64,000 nt of DNA. Origin: an uncultured Gammaproteobacteria bacterium. GTDB taxonomy: Bacteria > Patescibacteriota > Microgenomatia > CAZETR01 > Amesbacteraceae. The position numbers and the translations under genes are program-made. Below are positions 1,938 to 24,365 of the stretch, one piece after another; the stretch's first letter is position 1; each line of letters starts with the position of its first letter. The stretch spans positions 5,266 through 69,265 of the forward strand of contig CAZWKN010000002.1 of assembly GCA_964633995.1 (NCBI GenBank), in the 5' to 3' direction. Under the pieces are notes generated by a model. The model was not told the DNA's origin. It saw only the letters and a list, made by a program, of their open reading frames with translations, and searched no databases.

Positions 1938-1985
1938 TGGTGAGCCTGTCGAACCATCCCCGTTGGGGTCACAATTTTATAAAAA

Positions 1986-2025
1986 TACCAAAGGTAGCAA
2001 GGCTATTTCACCTCTAAGGTGGAAA
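1986..2025 (+). repeat. REP-like palindromic element, copy 1
   Basis: TACCAAAGGTAGCAAGGCTATTTCACCTCTAAGGTGGAAA. Near-identical to the copies at 22788 and 24313. Hairpin TTCACCT/AGGTG(G)AA. Lies between convergent genes and abuts the stop codon at 2027. Confidence 0.7.
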
Positions 2026-2026
2026 A

Positions 2027-2350
2027 TTACCCTACCTGATAGGTGGGTTTGGAAGTTTTAACAAAGGCTTTAATATTTTCGACCACCATAGCGTTCATAC
2101 TAGTCTTGGCCTCCTTGGAGCCATAAGCGGTATGGGGAGTGATAATGAATTTGCTGTCCGGGAGCGACAGTAAACCCCAATAATCTTCTTGTGTTGTAGG
2201 AACGGGTTCTTTGTAATACGAGTCAAAAGCAGCACAAGCAATTTTGTTTTCTACCAAAGCTTTTTTCAAAGCCTCTGGGTCGACTAACTCAGCTCTAGAA
2301 GTACAAACAAGAACAGCGTGAGGTTTCATCTGGAGAGCCATATGATCCAT
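2027..2350 (-). pseudogene. C-terminal fragment of a D-isomer-specific 2-hydroxyacid dehydrogenase (truncated)
   Basis: 107 aa. Resembles only the C-terminal end of the NAD-binding domain plus the tail (ITPHTAYGSKEA ~ TPHIAG..EA). The N-terminal ~200 aa of the family are absent. REP copy abuts the 3' end. Confidence 0.45.
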
Positions 2351-7303: not shown

Positions 7304-8036
7304 CTACTTCGGCGATTTGTTTTAAAGTCTTGATGCGCACAACTTCTTGGCTAACCGGCAAATTGTGAATTGACCAGATAGCCGAGTTTTCTACTAGAAA
7401 ACAATGTTTGACTCCAACTGTTTGGGCGGGAATGATATCTGACCTGGGGCTGTCCCCAACTACGGCACACTGGGCGGGTTTCACTTTAAAATAGTGCATG
7501 GCCTGAAGCCATGATTCCGAGGTCTTGTGACCGTCCTCACTAACGATATAAACTTGATCCGGTCGCACAAACCTTTCCAAGTTTAACCAAGCGTATTTCT
7601 GGTTTGTCCAATCTCTATTTGCGTGGGTGACAATGCCTATGGGGATGCCTGTATTTTTAACAATTTGAAGCCCTTCTTCGGCACCGTCCTGCATTTTAAG
7701 CGGCGTGGTGTATATTTTCTTGAATATCTGTTTCATTTCGCCCTCTAAACCCTTTTGAAATCTGTTCTTTGCTGCCATCTCGTTTACCACAAAGTTCCAG
7801 CGAATAGGATTGACACCGATTTGTTCAAAAAGCCGGTTGTTTATTTCTTCAATGTAGGTTAGCCAATCGGCGCGAGTTTGGTGTGGAGCGTGCAAACTTA
7901 ACAAGTCAGCCGCCTCGGATAACGCTTCACTAAAAAGATGCCTGGTGGAGCAAATAGTATCGTCCAGATCAAACAAAAACCGCTTTATGTCATGTTTGGC
8001 ACACCACATACTCAAACTTGATTTCTTTTTTGACAT
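7293..8036 (-). CDS. HAD family hydrolase
   Basis: Motif I FLFDLDDTI (DxDxT) and downstream motifs (VGDS). 247 aa. Confidence 0.65.
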   Translation of the reverse strand: MSKKKSSLSMWCAKHDIKRFLFDLDDTICSTRHLFSEALSEAADLLSLHAPHQTRADWLTYIEEINNRLFEQIGVNPIRWNFVVNEMAAKNRFQKGLEGEMKQIFKKIYTTPLKMQDGAEEGLQIVKNTGIPIGIVTHANRDWTNQKYAWLNLERFVRPDQVYIVSEDGHKTSESWLQAMHYFKVKPAQCAVVGDSPRSDIIPAQTVGVKHCFLVENSAIWSIHNLPVSQEVVRIKTLKQIAEVVSF

Positions 8037-8066
8037 GGAGAGATTATACTAATTGTCACAGGCGAT

Positions 8067-10217
8067 ATGGGGTTGATTTCAATTTTGTTTCTGATATCGG
8101 TACCCGTGTTTTACGTGTATGGAGTAATTTGTTTTTTTAGACAGTTTGGTAACAAGAAAACTGTTGATCAAATTCCCACCACACCCACACCCAGCCCACT
8201 TCCCGTTTCGGCCCCGGTCCAAATAGTTAAACCTGAAAAACACATAGACAACGTTAATGTCGTTCTTTACTTGGGGGCATTTTTGATAATTGTCGCATGT
8301 GGGATATTTGCGACCTATTCTTATGCAAACATATCAGACTTAAGTAAGGCCCTATTGATGTTTCTGTTTGCCAGCGGCTTTTATTTGTCCGGACTGCTGA
8401 TGTACAAATCGTCTGAAAAAATAAAACCGGCTGCGATTGTGTTTTCCTGCATTGGTCTTATTAGCTATCCATTGGTCGGGCTGGTAGCAAGTAATTTGAG
8501 CCACGAGCCTGCATACTTACGGATGATTTGGTTTTTAACGTCTCTGGTGTGTGCGGGATTGTACTACTACGCCAATGGCGTAATCCGGCATACCCTGCTG
8601 GATTATTTGGTTGTGTTTACTTCGCTTTCACTTTTCCAGTCCACAATTGGCTTATTTAATTTGCCCGTCCACTACTATTATTGGGGCCTGGCCATTTTTG
8701 CCATGATTAACACAATATTGAATAAGACGAAACTTGAATCTGAACCCGGAAATCCCACTTTGGTAGTCTCTCAAGTCTTGTTGCCGGTAGCCTTGGTATT
8801 TAGCCTGACTGATGTTGTTAACCGAAATTTTTTGCAATCTGGAATTACATTTGCCCTGGCCACCGGCTACTATGGAATGCTGGCTTATATATACAAACCC
8901 CAGGATAAACAACAGATCTTTGCCGCCATTGCGGCTCTGACTGCCCCCATTTCGATAGGATTTATTGGTAAACAGGTACTTCCGAATTTATTTTCTGCAG
9001 AAGAGGGACTTATTTTTGTAGGATTAGGAATTACCTACGCTTTGATAGCTGAGCTGCTAAGACAGGCCAAAAGACCCGATTTGGAACTGTTATTTGCGGC
9101 ATTTGGAAGTGGATTAGCCGGGATGGCTACAGTATTCACTCTTGGTATTCCTGCCTGGTATTTGTCTACGACGGTTGCGTGGGTGGTGCTAAATTATTAT
9201 TTTTATTACCGAACCAAGCATATAATCAATTTTGGAGTGCTAATACTATCTGCATTGGTACTGCCACATGCAATCACCCAGTACTTGACGATGATACAAA
9301 GTGAAGTTGCTTTGGCCTGCATGTATTTAACGTTACTAGTAATCCCACTGAGTGTCCGCGAGCACCTAAACTCTTACTTAAAGATGGCTAGTTATGCCAT
9401 TTTTTTGATAGCTTCAATCTATTTCGCATTTTTAGGGCAGGTGCCGTTGGGATTATTGGTGATTTTAATATCAGGGGGCGTTTGGTATGGGTTGTGCCAA
9501 CTGGAAAATGAACCCAAATTAAAATTCATTTCTGTTTGGATTGGCTATATCGCTGTCGCAAGCGCCAGCATGATTTACAAGCTTACATTGATTGATACCG
9601 CCTTGGGTTATTTATTAACCGCTACTGCCGTGTATTTGATTAATTTGATCAAGCCTCAAAACGCACTTGTTATTAGCGCCTTATTTGGATCAATGCTTGG
9701 GTTTTACCTGTCTTGTTACTTGCCACTTGGCGGGTGGTTGGCCTCTATTGCTCTGGTGGTGACCGGCGGAATGATTGTAGTGGAAGGTATGACCAGAAAG
9801 ATGAAAGTTTATATTCAAACTGGAGTGGCAATCGTCTTGGCCGGAATTCAATTCTATGCCGGAAGAGTATTATTGGTTGATGAAATGCAATTTTACATGC
9901 TGGGCTGGGCGGCTTACGCCTGGTGGATTGATATTGAAATACTGGCACTCGCATTGGCTACAGTCCCCATGGGAGTTCAGGCTTTAACTAGTCAAGTTAG
10001 AGGAGTGGTGTTAATCGGAGAGGGTTTGGCGCTTGTATTTGCCGGATTACATTTTAGGAGGCCGAACGTCTGGAGGTGGGGGTGTGCGGTGTTGGTGGCT
10101 GAAGTTATTTACTATACCAGGGGAATCCTATTGAACCTACCTGGGTGGGTGATCTTTGGCACGTTGGGTATTTTATTACTATCGGGATCGATTTACATAC
10201 TTCAAAAAAGGAAGTAA
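8067..10217 (+). CDS. polytopic integral membrane protein (about 20 TM), function unknown
   Basis: 716 aa, almost entirely hydrophobic helices. Pro/Thr-rich segment PTTPTPSPLPVSAPV near the N-terminus. Confidence 0.5.
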   Translation: MGLISILFLISVPVFYVYGVICFFRQFGNKKTVDQIPTTPTPSPLPVSAPVQIVKPEKHIDNVNVVLYLGAFLIIVACGIFATYSYANISDLSKALLMFLFASGFYLSGLLMYKSSEKIKPAAIVFSCIGLISYPLVGLVASNLSHEPAYLRMIWFLTSLVCAGLYYYANGVIRHTLLDYLVVFTSLSLFQSTIGLFNLPVHYYYWGLAIFAMINTILNKTKLESEPGNPTLVVSQVLLPVALVFSLTDVVNRNFLQSGITFALATGYYGMLAYIYKPQDKQQIFAAIAALTAPISIGFIGKQVLPNLFSAEEGLIFVGLGITYALIAELLRQAKRPDLELLFAAFGSGLAGMATVFTLGIPAWYLSTTVAWVVLNYYFYYRTKHIINFGVLILSALVLPHAITQYLTMIQSEVALACMYLTLLVIPLSVREHLNSYLKMASYAIFLIASIYFAFLGQVPLGLLVILISGGVWYGLCQLENEPKLKFISVWIGYIAVASASMIYKLTLIDTALGYLLTATAVYLINLIKPQNALVISALFGSMLGFYLSCYLPLGGWLASIALVVTGGMIVVEGMTRKMKVYIQTGVAIVLAGIQFYAGRVLLVDEMQFYMLGWAAYAWWIDIEILALALATVPMGVQALTSQVRGVVLIGEGLALVFAGLHFRRPNVWRWGCAVLVAEVIYYTRGILLNLPGWVIFGTLGILLLSGSIYILQKRK

Positions 10218-10293: not shown

Positions 10294-13041
10294 ATGGTGT
10301 TGGGTGCTGTTTTGATTCTTCCGGTCATGGTTTTGTCTGTCCAAGGAGCAAAAAGGTTGTATACAAGCGCTGCTACTTCAAGTTTGCTTTATGGCCAGGT
10401 TGCTATTTCTCCCGAAGCGGACACTATGGTGTATAAAGATAGACCGTCCACCAACTATGGTTATTCCAAAACGTTAGAGGTAAGCGGGAGTCCCGTAAAA
10501 TCTTCATATCTTAGATTTGATCTCAATGATCCAAAATTGATCGGGAAGACAATAACCTCAGCTAAACTGAGATTTAAAGTTTTTGACGGTTCCACCAATA
10601 CGCAAAATGTAAAGTATGTTGACAATACAACCTGGTCCGAGATTTCAACCTCTTATAACAACAGACCCGCGAGTAACCCCACGGTTGTAGCATATATTAA
10701 GAGCTCTAGCGCCGGAAATTGGAACGAGGTTAATCTCACCAATTTTGTGACTAAATTTGTTTCATCGGTGGGGCTAAAAAAGTTCTCACTTGCAATAGAC
10801 TCTACTGGATCCGATGGTTTGATTTTTTATTCTAAGGAAAACCCCACCGACAAACCCCAGCTGGTAGTTTCATATTCTTACACTCCAGGTGGTCCTAGTG
10901 CCCCCACTGCGTGTACACCGACCACGACAGGTGGGTTGGATTACTCGGGAAATTATCTCGAAAAGAATGGAATAAAAGTTGTAAACCTGGCTGGACAGGA
11001 TTATTTATTCTCAGCTTTTTCTAAACCAACTTCTCCATCCGGCTACTATCAGCTTTGGGTCGCTAAACGAAACTTGACAAACATGACTACTGCTCCTGAG
11101 TATTATCCGATACAGTTGGTGGTACCGCTTACGTTTGGATCGGGTCAGAACTGGCATAGAGGAATGGCTTTCGATAACGGAAAGTTGTATGAGGCGGTTT
11201 CGTTTGGATCTGGCCTGAATTTTAATAGTTCAATAGCGGTCTTTGACCCACTGGTCCCTGGTTTATTGGATCCAAATTCTACCTCAAACATGGCGTCAAC
11301 AGGTAGACTGGCAAGTACATCTATGATTTCGGACATAGACGTGTCCTCTATTTCTGGAAAGACCTGGGCTTTTGTATCTGAAACTTCTTCATCCGGAACT
11401 AGCGGTAGGATCGTCGCTTATGATTTGACTAACTTTTCGGTCGGAATGATTCCTACACCAGTGGTGCTTAAAACTTACTCTACCGCCAGCAGACAAACAC
11501 CTTTGAGTATAAAGGTTGTGGGTCAAAGAATTTACATTATTGTTAAACAGATGCCTCCAAGCTCTAATTATTCTGGACCATTTGGAACTGGGGTGGAGGC
11601 GTATGACTTTACGTATACCGGAACCAATGGTGCTCCTACGGCCTTGGCTGCCACTTCGTTGCCCCTTATTAACAACGCTACGCTAACGGGCGGAGTCGAA
11701 AATGGCTACTTGGGATATGCAAGTGATTTGGATTACAACACTACTGATGGTTTGGTTATATCCGACACTAAGAATAATAGAGTGTTGTTTTATAACGTAG
11801 CAACAACGCCACATACTTTGGTTAATAAATTGGGATTGACTAGGGAATCCGAGGCAATTACAACTTACTCAGGTAATGTAGGTGTTTTGAATTACGCAGG
11901 GAACAGCTTTGAAACTTATTCCGGAACTGCTTGCAAGACTAGCCCGGACACTGTAGAGCCCACCGGTACACCGTCTTTGGTGGGATATTGGAATTTTGAT
12001 AATGGATTGGTGGACTCAGTAACTGGCACCAGTACTTTTGTGAGACCTGCCTCTCCACCCATACCAATCAACGTCCAGGTGACTCCAGCCAATTACTCCT
12101 GTGGAAATGCCAGACAAAATTCGTCAGTTCCGTCAACATATGGCCATCTTTCCATGAGTGGTCTATCGACCCTTACTAATCCACTTAATCTTAAACGATT
12201 TACGATATCTTTGTTTTATAACCCTCAATCAACCAATGCTCAAATAATAGATACTGATGTTTATGAAATTTATGGTTATAGTCTGAACTACTACAGCAGC
12301 AAGCTGACATTTTGTCTTGGCTACGGGAATTGTGCTAGTCCGACCATAACCTTGACTGCAAATACTTGGTATCACATGGTGGCAAGCTATGATGGCATGA
12401 CGATTAAGCTTACTGTTTATGATTTGTTGGGTAATCAGCTTGCCACTAGTTCGTTTAATTATGTGGGCGGCCTGACATATCTTGGGGCAAACAACAAGAT
12501 TAGTTTGGTCGATTATTCAAACGGCATTATTGATAACCTAAAAATATATAAGGATGTCTATACCAATGTGACAGACATGAGATCATGTTCTGTGGTTCCC
12601 ACGTCTACTCCAATCCCGACTATTGTTCCAACCTCTACGCCCGTACCGCCTACCTCTACTCCTATTCCTCCAACCTCAACACCAATTCCACCTACTTCTA
12701 CACCCGTTCCGTCTTATAACCTGAATATGATTATTTACGTCGGACCCACTGCGGGCCCGTGCCATATTAATGTACCATGTAGCAGTCCACTTGTTGGGGA
12801 AAGCATTGATATATATTCAACTTCTTCTGGTAAACCTGTGTGGACCACCACATTGGTAACAGATGCTAATGGCCAGACTCAAGCTAATTTGCCTCCCGGA
12901 AGTTATATTGCTCAGTCTAAAGGTTATGATCCCTTGGGTAGCACTTTTAAAAACTTGAGAAAGTTATATCCAACTCCGTTTTCTGTAGTGGCCGGACAGG
13001 TGACTAATTTGGAACTTTCTGTCGATTCCGGATTAAGATGA
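10294..13041 (+). CDS. large secreted multidomain protein: signal peptide, DNRLRE-like beta-sandwich, LamG_3 (concanavalin-like), PTSTP[IV]P repeat linker, C-terminal Ig/CarbopepD_reg-like domain
   Basis: Start moved to the ATG at 10294 (MVLGAVLILPVMVLSVQGAKR signal peptide). SSYLRFDL...AKLRFKVFDG motif. GYWNFDNGLVDSVTG and W-HMVASYDG typical of Laminin_G_3. 5x tandem PTSTPxP. C-terminal IDIYSTSSGKPVWTTTLVTDANGQ beta-sandwich. Confidence 0.6.
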   Translation: MVLGAVLILPVMVLSVQGAKRLYTSAATSSLLYGQVAISPEADTMVYKDRPSTNYGYSKTLEVSGSPVKSSYLRFDLNDPKLIGKTITSAKLRFKVFDGSTNTQNVKYVDNTTWSEISTSYNNRPASNPTVVAYIKSSSAGNWNEVNLTNFVTKFVSSVGLKKFSLAIDSTGSDGLIFYSKENPTDKPQLVVSYSYTPGGPSAPTACTPTTTGGLDYSGNYLEKNGIKVVNLAGQDYLFSAFSKPTSPSGYYQLWVAKRNLTNMTTAPEYYPIQLVVPLTFGSGQNWHRGMAFDNGKLYEAVSFGSGLNFNSSIAVFDPLVPGLLDPNSTSNMASTGRLASTSMISDIDVSSISGKTWAFVSETSSSGTSGRIVAYDLTNFSVGMIPTPVVLKTYSTASRQTPLSIKVVGQRIYIIVKQMPPSSNYSGPFGTGVEAYDFTYTGTNGAPTALAATSLPLINNATLTGGVENGYLGYASDLDYNTTDGLVISDTKNNRVLFYNVATTPHTLVNKLGLTRESEAITTYSGNVGVLNYAGNSFETYSGTACKTSPDTVEPTGTPSLVGYWNFDNGLVDSVTGTSTFVRPASPPIPINVQVTPANYSCGNARQNSSVPSTYGHLSMSGLSTLTNPLNLKRFTISLFYNPQSTNAQIIDTDVYEIYGYSLNYYSSKLTFCLGYGNCASPTITLTANTWYHMVASYDGMTIKLTVYDLLGNQLATSSFNYVGGLTYLGANNKISLVDYSNGIIDNLKIYKDVYTNVTDMRSCSVVPTSTPIPTIVPTSTPVPPTSTPIPPTSTPIPPTSTPVPSYNLNMIIYVGPTAGPCHINVPCSSPLVGESIDIYSTSSGKPVWTTTLVTDANGQTQANLPPGSYIAQSKGYDPLGSTFKNLRKLYPTPFSVVAGQVTNLELSVDSGLR
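12598..12711 (+). repeat. tandem 21-nt repeat encoding a PTSTP[IV]P linker
   Basis: ccaacctctacgcccgtaccg / cctacctctactcctattcct / ccaacctcaacaccaattcca / cctacttctacacccgttccg. Confidence 0.6.
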
Positions 13042-22715: not shown

Positions 22716-22787
22716 ATTTTTGTTGCCAGTCGACCAGCGACTGTTTCAGTTTTTATGATATACCGCTGGAAGTGTCATAACAAGTAA

Positions 22788-22827
22788 TACCAAAGGTCGC
22801 AAGGCTATTTCACCTCTAAGGTGAAGG
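22788..22827 (+). repeat. REP-like palindromic element, copy 2
   Basis: TACCAAAGGTCGCAAGGCTATTTCACCTCTAAGGTGAAGG. In the dnaE upstream gap, abutting the stop at 22829. Confidence 0.7.
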
Positions 22828-22828
22828 A

Positions 22829-23596
22829 TTAACGATACCCTTCTCCACAGGAGATGTTGGTAAAGGAAAAATTTGTGGTGTCTAATTTTCCCGTGCACCC
22901 ACCTTCAAAATGCCATGCCGTATTTACGGTACATACTAAATCGACTCCGCACTTTACGGCGAATGGCACTCCGCTAAAGTTGGTTGGAAGTTGTAATGTT
23001 TTTAGGGGCGTAAAGGTTTTTTCTTGCTGGAACTGGTCGTTAATAGCGTAAATGCTGATCGAGTTGGAAATGGCGTTAATCGAGACTAGTTTATTACCGG
23101 CGATGTCAGACAAATTTTCGTCTCCATACAGCGGACTTTTTGTGGAAATGACTGCGTACGAATAAGAACCGTCTTTACCCCAGTCTGACGACGGGCTGTT
23201 TTCTTGTTTTACATAGTAAATCCCGTCCAGATTTTGGTCTGAATATGTGTAAATATTTAAATTTATGCCCTTAAATTTTAGGGTTTTGACAATTCTTGTG
23301 TGCACTTGTTGTGGGGTGGGTATTATTTCTTGAGTTAGTTGAGCATTCCTTGGTTTAGTTAAAGCCGTAATTTGCCTGTTTAAGGATTTAATAACCATTG
23401 AGTAATAAAGTGAACCTCCGATTGCTGCGAAAGCGACCAGAGTAAGAAGGAAGGGAATAAACTGACTAAACTGGAATCTGGGTTTTGGATTGGTGTTCAC
23501 ATCGGGTTCCATGGGTTTATTGCTTTGATTTTGTTTTTGTAATTTACTATACAACCACCGGTTTGGAATTACTATCTCTATCTGATTTCTTTCCAC
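22829..23596 (-). CDS. hypothetical exported or membrane-anchored protein
   Basis: 255-aa ORF with an N-terminal TM/signal segment. The annotated GTG start lies inside the inverted REP hairpin. An alternative ATG start is at 23512. Flanked by REP copies. Confidence 0.4.
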   Translation of the reverse strand: MERNQIEIVIPNRWLYSKLQKQNQSNKPMEPDVNTNPKPRFQFSQFIPFLLTLVAFAAIGGSLYYSMVIKSLNRQITALTKPRNAQLTQEIIPTPQQVHTRIVKTLKFKGINLNIYTYSDQNLDGIYYVKQENSPSSDWGKDGSYSYAVISTKSPLYGDENLSDIAGNKLVSINAISNSISIYAINDQFQQEKTFTPLKTLQLPTNFSGVPFAVKCGVDLVCTVNTAWHFEGGCTGKLDTTNFSFTNISCGEGYR

Positions 23597-23629
23597 CTTG
23601 AAGGTGGAAAGTTAAGTTGCGTGGTATCC
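23591..23629 (-). repeat. REP-like element, inverted and degenerate copy
   Basis: TTCCACCT-TGA-AGGTGGAA hairpin followed by GTTAAGTTGCGTGGTATCC. Approximates the reverse complement of the REP consensus. 8 nt upstream of the RAYT start. Confidence 0.55.
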
Positions 23630-23636
23630 TTTATAT

Positions 23637-24311
23637 ATGCCCGGGCGCGAGATTCCCCTGGTGACTGGTGAGTATTACCACGTGCTTAACAGAGGGGTAA
23701 ATAGTGTACCCACCTTTTCTACTTCAAAAGACTATTTACAATTTCTATTTAGTTTAGAGTACTACAACTTTACTAGTCCACCTGTAAGACTATCAAGATT
23801 TAAGGTTATGCCAAGACCCGAAAAGGAAGACTTACTTGATCAGCTTCGAAGCAATTCTGCTAAATACGTCGAATTACTCGCTTATACGTTAATGCCCAAC
23901 CATTTTCACCTGCTACTAAGACAGATTAAAGATGGTGGAATTTCTAAATTTACCGGAAAACTCGTAAACAGTTATACGAGGTATTTTAATACTATTCACC
24001 ACAGAACAGGACCCTTGTTCCAAGGAAAGTTTAAAGCTGTGTTAGTTGAATCCGAAGAACAGCTTATCCATCTATCAAGATATATTCACTTAAATCCGTT
24101 TGTATCTTCGGTGGTAAAGAAGGATCAATTGGAAGCGTACTTGTGGTCATCCTTGTCTGAGTATTTGACGGGAAAGGCGCAAAGATGTGAAATTAATACG
24201 GTCATGAATAGTTTTAAAAACTCGGAGGCGTACAGATCGTTTGTGTTTGATCACGCCGATTATGCAGCGAGAATTTCAATAGTTAAGCATTTAGCTTTGG
24301 AAAATGAGTAG
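23637..24311 (+). CDS. REP-associated tyrosine transposase (RAYT; IS200-like Y1 HUH transposase)
   Basis: YHVLNRG, HUH motif LMPNHFHLLL, catalytic Tyr context LSRYIHLNP. 224 aa. Flanked by inverted REP copies. Confidence 0.8.
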   Translation: MPGREIPLVTGEYYHVLNRGVNSVPTFSTSKDYLQFLFSLEYYNFTSPPVRLSRFKVMPRPEKEDLLDQLRSNSAKYVELLAYTLMPNHFHLLLRQIKDGGISKFTGKLVNSYTRYFNTIHHRTGPLFQGKFKAVLVESEEQLIHLSRYIHLNPFVSSVVKKDQLEAYLWSSLSEYLTGKAQRCEINTVMNSFKNSEAYRSFVFDHADYAARISIVKHLALENE

Positions 24312-24312
24312 G

Positions 24313-24353
24313 TACCAAAGGTCGCAAGGCTATTTCACCTCTAAGGTGAAAGG
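24313..24353 (+). repeat. REP-like palindromic element, copy 3
   Basis: TACCAAAGGTCGCAAGGCTATTTCACCTCTAAGGTGAAAGG. Starts 2 nt after the RAYT stop. Confidence 0.7.
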
Positions 24354-24365
24354 TATGTTACAAAC

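Follow-up and report, generated by a model that had tools for sequence, protein, structure and literature searches.

A probable REPtron/TIRtron-type unit, with a hairpin element matched to its transposase-like gene, in a Patescibacteria contig

A stretch of 64,000 nucleotides (64 kb) of contig CAZWKN010000002.1 (assembly GCA_964633995.1, Patescibacteriota), termed the window here and the scope of all copy counts unless other loci are named, contains a gene for a Y1 HUH tyrosine transposase-like protein and, on both sides of that gene and at a distance from it, copies of a short hairpin element. The gene (23637-24311, + strand) is single-copy in the window and of the RAYT/TIRYT type, RAYT standing for REP-associated tyrosine transposase and REP for repetitive extragenic palindrome. 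Its product of 224 amino acids (aa) has NHFH at residues 88-91, Y149 within YIHLNP, and a WSS tail. The locus is probably a unit of the REPtron/TIRtron type, in which a single-copy gene for a Y1 HUH enzyme has inverted copies of its cognate element, ~45 nucleotides (nt) long, on its two sides.

In the window the element consists of TACCAAAGGTMGCAAGGCTAT followed by the hairpin TTTCACCT-CTA-AGGTGRAA, and it is found at 1981-2029, 22783-22831 and 24307-24356, in each case on the + strand. The last of these, the downstream copy, begins 1 nt past the RAYT stop codon and has the motif TACCAAAGGTCGCAAGGCTAT and then the hairpin TTTCACCT-CTA-AGGTGAAA (45.4 bits with a covariance model). The copy at 22783-22831 (48.7 bits) is 0.8 kb upstream of the gene, and the solo copy at 1981-2029 (52 bits), which is also present in the independent Logan contig L093, is 21 kb away between convergent genes. 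The original prediction, made from the letters of the window, had listed three ~40-nt copies in the same orientation, each with a hairpin of 7-8 base pairs (bp), and both points hold. The match to the 40-mer is exact at 22788-22827 and has one mismatch at 24313-24352 (the end had been put one position too far, at 24353), with zero expected from 100 shuffles. The copy given as 1986-2025 is real and more diverged, a repeat finder placing it at 1984-2029 with 91% identity to 22786-22831 and 83% to 24311-24356 over 46 nt. The stem of TTTCACCT-CTA-AGGTGAAA is of 7-8 bp and its loop of 3 nt.

Directly upstream of the gene is a fourth and shorter relative of the element, inverted and degenerate (23586-23634, - strand), in which the palindrome CTTTCCACCT-TGA-AGGTGGAAAG at 23589-23611, with a perfect 10-bp stem (dG -9.9 kcal/mol, z = -5.4), is followed by GTTAAGTTGCGTGGTAT. 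A degenerate, oppositely oriented copy had been proposed here; the palindrome is real, and its inverted orientation, though the rule in relatives, is resolved only weakly by the window's own sequence (nhmmer E 2.5e-5 for the - strand versus 3.1e-4 for the +). No copy beyond these four sites was found over the 64 kb with an nhmmer profile hidden Markov model and a covariance model. Of the eight 8-kb bins, seven show a positive GC skew on the + strand, and the presence of all three intact copies on that strand is the orientation that would be expected if the active strand were the lagging-strand template, n being 3.

By its sequence and its predicted structure, the 224-aa open reading frame (ORF) encodes a Y1 HUH enzyme that is intact and belongs to the RAYT superfamily. 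NHFHLL (with H89 and H91) and SRYIHLNP (with Y149) are present as had been predicted, and the proposed assignment is borne out by a match to Pfam PF01797 (Y1_Tnp) over residues 54-151, at 35.3 bits against a cutoff of 23. The motifs comprise N88-H91 (NHFH), F128-Q129, Y149-P154 and W170-S171-S172. Among 35-37 aligned homologues no variation is seen at H89, H91 and Y149 or at N18, Q96, N153 and P154, and such family-wide retention of the HUH histidines and the catalytic tyrosine argues for retained cleavage chemistry. When an AlphaFold2 model (pLDDT 89.2, pTM 0.85) is compared with the PDB by Foldseek, the top match is 4ER8, a structure of the E. coli RAYT in complex with a REP hairpin (E 7e-7; TM 0.76, over the target), behind which rank the IS608, ISDra2 and IS200 transposases (E about 3e-4 and weaker). 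The top 30 matches are mainly RAYT, IS608, ISDra2 and IS200 transposases, and a few are chains of tRNA-His guanylyltransferase. A sequence profile search of the PDB also puts 4ER8 first, weakly (E 0.007). Pfam domains other than Y1_Tnp are absent at E<0.1, and residues 162-222 of the model form a helical C-terminal region.

What Quentin 2018 (PMC6006769) terms subclass 2.1 is the Group 1 RAYT of Bertels 2017 (PMC5581495) and the TIRYT of Di Nocera 2013 (PMC3733652), and it is to this group that the protein appears closest, by motifs and profile comparison. With a proteobacterial TIRYT from an Iodobacter plasmid (NHVH, WE, YIELNP), hhalign gives a probability of 99.2%, E 2e-19 and 32% identity, the proteins from the candidate phyla radiation (CPR) having an insertion of ~29 aa after helix A relative to the Iodobacter member.

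Evidence that gene and hairpin belong together comes from relatives, of which 83 distinct genes were collected with their flanks, 73 of them with enough flank on both sides. A perfect hairpin was taken as a stem of at least 6 bp with a 3-nt loop, and the association was assessed as enrichment over background hairpin density, the expectation being taken from the same loci; a formal covariation test on hairpins chosen as hairpins would be circular, and the enrichment test was used in its place. A perfect hairpin is present within 130 nt upstream in 37 of the 73 loci (6.8% expected), within 98 nt downstream in 35 (5.2% expected), and on both sides in 26 (0.35% expected). The two hairpins of one gene are alike in sequence and the sequence varies from gene to gene, e.g. 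TTCCACCT/AGGTGGAA, TACACCTC/GAGGTGTA, TCAACACC/GGTGTTGA, TCAAGGCC/GGCCTTGA and TCACTTGGCGG/CCGCCAAGTGA, as is to be expected where an enzyme and its DNA substrate co-evolve.

Alignment of the better-conserved elements gives a full family element in which a 5' ACC-NN-AGGTG(K)CAA is followed by ~6 nt ending in GCTAT and then by an 8-bp hairpin with the core CACCT-N3-AGGTG; conservation extends to the 20 nt of unpaired 5' sequence. The AGGTG of the 5' motif recurs in the 3' arm of the hairpin, and the two vary together (AGGTT/AGGTTG in related locus L020, AGGTTGAAA/AGGTTGAT in L052), and each element has three AGGTG/CACCT half-sites. At the foot of the hairpin the window has GGCTAT|TTCACCT and the family consensus is nnCTATT-CCACCT. 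In covariance-model matches nearly every upstream copy is on the strand opposite to the gene and stops ~16 nt short of the ATG, and the downstream copy is on the gene's strand, so that the usual layout is inverted, the hairpins being distal to the gene and the motifs proximal to it. A cruder comparison of flanks classed 11 as inverted and 7 as direct among 30 loci with matching hairpins on both sides.

A separate observation on these hairpins is that beside many of them one to six tandem duplicates of one arm are present, often including part of the loop and a few of the outer bases, and mostly on the side away from the gene. Instances are at L002 6170-6260 (AAGGTGGAAAAAGGTGGAAAACTCCAAGGTGGAAAAGTGGAAAAAAAGTGGGAAAAC), L003 2690-2740, L004 10680-10730, L009 9925-9975, L011 9945-9990, L022 5975-6010 and 6760-6800, L049 9900-9960 (with TACCTGAGACACTCCGGG repeated twice) and L089 5425-5470. 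Slippage at the hairpin could be responsible, or cleavage and rejoining could have left the duplications as footprints.

The gene family is common in Microgenomates-type CPR bacteria. A protein search gave 5,936 homologues, the best 50-57% identical, and the top ones that carry a source name are from Microgenomates, Amesbacteria, Gottesmanbacteria or the "Patescibacteria group"; at least 582 stretches encoding a relative were met in a metagenome scan. From these matches the window, too, very probably belongs to a CPR genome of Microgenomates type. The expectation that a REP-RAYT system would be unusual in a CPR genome has accordingly been abandoned. Among 72,556 plasmids there were 12 distant proteobacterial or firmicute relatives, of no more than 43% identity, and no sign that the CPR clade is plasmid-borne. 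Papers on RAYT, IS200 or TnpA-REP in CPR/Patescibacteria were searched for and none of relevance was found, and Patescibacteria are absent from the surveys of Di Nocera (PMC3733652), Quentin (PMC6006769) and Bertels (PMC5581495).

Elements on their own, away from family genes, occur in the window (1981-2029 and 22783-22831), in a Gottesmanbacteria metagenome-assembled genome (L003), in L017, L049, L050 and L051, and in others. In a contig scan the exact repeat core CAAGGCTATTTCACCTNNNAGGTG was found only in this Gottesmanbacteria genome, at two sites, one directly upstream of a family member and one alone. The number of solo elements is comparable to the ~12 occurrences of the flanking 16-mers of Group 1 RAYTs (Bertels 2017, PMC5581495). 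Within the coding region of a P-type ATPase in L011 (12946-12964) there is a further copy of the cognate hairpin, TTCCACCT-GAG-AGGTGGAA, which may be an insertion or a chance similarity. The unit itself is found in different gene contexts in different genomes, i.e. after gyrB, after rpsI, in a type IV pilus cluster and in a copper-resistance cluster. The flanks are unrelated even where the proteins are 69-77% identical (L007/L013, L004/L007 and L022/L033), yet one clade at 71-75% protein identity keeps synteny; the combination implies a unit that relocates over evolutionary time and is not a high-copy insertion sequence. L057 has two family genes (7431-8081, +, and 10934-11587, -), ~45% identical, 3 kb apart and in opposite orientation, each with its own cognate hairpin (ACACACCT-TAA-AGGTGT and TTGACACCT-GGA-AGGTGAA), and such divergence of paralogues with hairpins of their own is typical RAYT behaviour.

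A different construction of the same mobility is that the ~770-bp hairpin-gene-hairpin unit is an autonomous minimal IS200-like insertion sequence (IS), the solo hairpins being its scars or one-ended remnants. Hairpins directly at both gene ends in most relatives, a unit size similar to that of IS200, the unrelated contexts among genomes with 69-77% identical proteins, and the direct flanks, as in IS200/IS605, of 7 of the 30 loci with matching hairpins on both sides are all in keeping with this. It is nevertheless unlikely, given that there is one copy per window or locus, that the paralogues known are only ~45% identical and have a hairpin each, that inverted flanks dominate, and that synteny is kept in the clade mentioned. 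Y---NP and NHFH mark class 2 (TnpA-REP), IS200 having Y---Q and DH[VI]H, and the fold is nearer the RAYT 4ER8 than IS608 or ISDra2. Moreover, the solo copies are near-identical and include the full 45-nt element, and so are not decayed scars.

The upstream copy has a further property that is relevant to how it may be used. In 33 of 81 distinct upstream regions of relatives TTGAC(A), the reverse complement of the element's GTCAA motif, is at -34 to -39 from the ATG, a TAnnnT hexamer follows 17 nt on, and the ATG is 5-8 nt beyond that, with no Shine-Dalgarno (e.g. L016 1017-1051, L022 6014-6048 and L045 9966-10000). Judged from this spacing alone, the geometry looks like that of a sigma-70-type promoter within the inverted repeat, with transcripts that would start at or next to the start codon to give leaderless or near-leaderless mRNA. 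The -35 box TTGACA, at a constant distance from the ATG, is thus part of the upstream inverted copy in most relatives, and binding of the enzyme to that copy could therefore autoregulate the gene. The upstream copy in the window is ~13 nt shorter than the family norm (hairpin centre at -37 versus about -50) and the TTGACA/-10 segment is missing; its promoter part appears to have decayed.

On another reading the palindromes are double-stranded operators, and the protein, a domesticated factor for DNA binding or nicking, would chiefly control its own promoter along with a few other sites and would not mobilise DNA. The overlap of the upstream copy with the -35 box, the three half-sites per element with a 5' motif that co-varies with the hairpin arm, and the low copy number would all suit an operator. 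Invariance of the HUH histidines and the catalytic tyrosine throughout the family would not, nor would a downstream copy without obvious regulatory role, and the near-identical solo copies in unrelated intergenic sites, together with relocation of the unit, need a mobility mechanism. As a replacement for the REPtron/TIRtron reading it is quite improbable; it is, though, compatible with that reading and not exclusive of it.

The original prediction also had every copy abutting a stop codon, which is so for three of the four, the copy at 23589-23634 lying between two start codons. That a terminator or other RNA hairpin without connection to the ORF was duplicated locally, or that the similarity is due to chance, has hardly any probability left. 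The three stop-abutting copies might speak for it, but a terminator scan misses all copies and no hairpin is followed by a T-tract, the unpaired 5' sequence of 20 nt shows conservation, zero matches are expected by chance, an Rfam scan of the window reports tRNAs only with no known RNA family at the repeats, and the family-wide enrichment and gene-hairpin co-variation, over dozens of unrelated contigs, contradict it.

Several points weigh against the REPtron/TIRtron reading itself. There are four copies in the 64 kb and three of them are around the gene; in related loci there are ~8-10 solo elements in 0.84 Mb, or ~1 per 100 kb, many within a few kb of the gene; and in the related Gottesmanbacteria genome there are only the two exact core matches. 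With copy number this low, large-scale REP-like proliferation is not established. A GT[AG]G tetranucleotide is absent from the 5' foot of the window hairpin, which is GCTAT. NCBIfam NF047646 (REP-associated tyrosine transposase, an equivalog model) scores 43.1 bits, under its cutoff of 80. At 7 of the 30 loci the flanks look direct and not inverted, and a perfect palindrome would suit a double-stranded operator with a dimer on it equally well. What remains of the REP-RAYT unit originally proposed is a Y1 HUH gene bracketed by inverted palindromic repeats, with solo copies and with the E. coli RAYT as best fold match; a canonical GTAG pair it is not. The near-identity of the copies makes it plausible that the window element is active or was recently so, and the degenerate state of the upstream copy, which lacks the family promoter segment, weighs against recent activity.

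With these qualifications, the REPtron/TIRtron reading is preferred. It draws directly on the anatomy, on the family and fold of the protein, on gene-hairpin co-variation, on the solo copies and on relocation between related genomes, and the biochemistry of IS608 TnpA and E. coli TnpA-REP (PMC8266576, PMC3479197) provides the mechanistic precedent from which binding of single-stranded DNA, cleavage chemistry and mobilisation are inferred by homology. The enzyme would bind the hairpin when it is extruded in single-stranded DNA, for instance in the lagging-strand template. The metal held by the HUH motif and Tyr149 would cut the DNA near the hairpin, forming a 5'-phosphotyrosine link, and rejoining would follow. 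GCTAT at the hairpin foot is in position the equivalent of the GTAG guide. Occasional copying or movement of the short element would yield the solo copies and, more rarely, the whole hairpin-gene-hairpin unit would be moved, while binding to the upstream copy could allow the gene to regulate itself.

A broader proposal, which is offered tentatively and may well prove wrong, is that Patescibacteria hold a large Group-1-like RAYT clade, with thousands of members in public data, in which each gene co-evolves with a three-arm CACCT/AGGTG hairpin element that is both the substrate of the enzyme and the carrier of the gene's own promoter, from which a near-leaderless mRNA would be made. If so, the missing cognate DNA partner would be supplied for the most widespread RAYT group, one reported to be without REPs, DNA recognition and autoregulation in Group 1 would become directly testable, and the arm duplications could be cleavage and rejoining footprints.

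Some other features of the window adjoin the repeats. Between two of the copies is a membrane-anchored ORF of 227 aa (22829-23512, - strand), in that the copy at 22783-22831, which is placed between the stop of this ORF and the dnaE start, and the palindrome at 23589 form an inverted pair that encloses it. The longest minus-strand ORF here, 22829-23596, has a GTG start and reaches into the palindrome, and on this had been founded the suggestion that a REP is used at the 5' end of the gene, with the start inside the hairpin. An independent gene call in Logan contig L001 gives 227 aa and an ATG at 23512, which is the most likely start, and the GTG is an artefact of taking the longest ORF. The ORF matches no family in Pfam or NCBIfam and no relative of it is present beside other RAYT loci; the possibility of its being a passenger or conserved partner was rejected on these grounds. 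It is a bystander enclosed by two repeat copies, and it does not speak for a role of the repeat in shaping gene starts.

The solo copy at 1981-2029 has on one side an ORF of the GIY-YIG nuclease family (1650-1937) and on the other a dehydrogenase fragment. A second, degenerate hairpin, CCTACCT-GAT-AGGTGGG (2031-2047, +), comes directly after it to make a doublet. The 107-aa ORF at 2027-2350 (-) that adjoins the solo copy and this second hairpin corresponds to no more than the C-terminal portion of a D-2-hydroxyacid dehydrogenase (PF02826, from a Logan gene call). Logan contig L001 (SRR8893623) corresponds to window positions ~22799-24345, so starting inside the 22788-22827 copy and ending inside the 24313-24352 copy. 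The short-read assembler apparently broke at the repeat there, and, with L001 ending close to both copies, such repeats may fragment short-read CPR assemblies more generally.

Among domesticated transposases that have a population of short mobile repeats of their own, RAYT/REP systems are the foremost case, and work on them has, to our knowledge, been confined almost entirely to Proteobacteria. What the locus holds is a genuine, well-formed RAYT/TIRYT unit. Its kind, the REPtron/TIRtron, is known and its lineage is new, and the term REP needs qualifying for it in view of the absence of GTAG and the low copy number. RAYT-hairpin architecture with strong co-variation in tiny, repeat-poor CPR genomes extends the known host range. 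It also provides a clear candidate DNA substrate for subclass 2.1/Group 1, the largest RAYT group and one reported as REP-less, and an 8-bp perfect hairpin with a conserved 5' motif is a compact system for tests of target choice.

Of the known systems with which the unit can be compared, IS200/IS605 (IS200, IS608 and ISDra2; subclass 1.1) has in common with it the Y1 HUH fold, subterminal hairpins, small size and, presumably, single-strand chemistry. The motifs differ, DH[VI]H and Y---Q being those of IS200 and Y---NP that of class 2 TnpA-REP (Quentin Table 1, PMC6006769), whereas the CPR proteins have NHFH and Y---NP. The CPR flanks are mostly inverted and not direct, the unit is not in multiple identical copies, the structural match is weaker (E about 3e-4), and there is no tnpB-like neighbour at the window locus or the related loci examined.

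In the E. coli REPtron a TnpA-REP (a RAYT of subclass 2.2/Group 2) is associated with GTAG REPs and with BIMEs (PMC3333891, PMC3479197, PMC8266576). The likeness is in the arrangement, a single-copy Y1 HUH gene between inverted palindromic copies that are also present elsewhere, in Y---NP, in 4ER8 being the best structural match, and in an element composed of an unpaired conserved 5' motif and a hairpin. The CPR element, however, is without GTAG and its stem is a perfect 8 bp, in contrast to the long, bulged stem of the E. coli REP; GTAG REPs are in hundreds of copies as against a handful; and sequence similarity to the E. coli RAYT is marginal (profile E 0.007, and the NCBIfam equivalog under its cutoff).

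Resemblance is closest to subclass 2.1. For its second variant Quentin Table 1 (PMC6006769) gives NH[YF]H, FQ, Y[IV]HLNP, an SS tail and a length of about 238 aa, and the motif set NHFH, FQ, YIHLNP and WSS is the same here, with 224 aa compared to about 225-238. A C-terminal domain resembling a helix-turn-helix (HTH; Bac_DnaA_C, HTH_23 or HTH_28) is expected of subclass 2.1/TIRYT; Pfam detects neither an HTH nor Bac_DnaA_C at the C-terminus of the CPR protein, where the model is helical. The ~29-aa insertion is a difference from the Iodobacter TIRYT. The CPR repeat combines a hairpin, the core of which is CACCT/AGGTG, with an AGGTGTCAA motif, whereas proteobacterial terminal inverted repeats (TIRs) carry GGGGWSAS (PMC3733652), matched at 6 of 8 positions; GGGGWSAS is absent from the flanking inverted repeats of the CPR unit, with AGGTG(K)CAA and the CACCT hairpin in its place.

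Shared with TIRYTs are the inverted flanks, which lie ~35-60 nt ahead of the ATG and a few nt past the stop, a low-to-moderate copy number of the flanking repeat, and paralogues that are diverged and not identical. The flanks were confirmed in two proteobacterial plasmid members, from Iodobacter (L094, 472-497/1317-1342) and Rhodospirillum rubrum (L095, 546-564/1312-1330), whose inverted repeats contain GGGGTCAGA, equal to GGGGWSAS. With inverted repeats flanking these proteobacterial relatives at similar distances, the CPR architecture is the known TIRtron/REPtron one. The R. rubrum repeat, GGGGTCAGACCCC, is itself palindromic, and flanks that are self-complementary may therefore be more widespread in subclass 2.1 than has been reported. 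Automatic and manual searches by Quentin (PMC6006769) had found no REP-like structures for subclass 2.1; the CPR clade, in a host lineage, Patescibacteria, new to the surveys of that subclass, has clear cognate hairpins.

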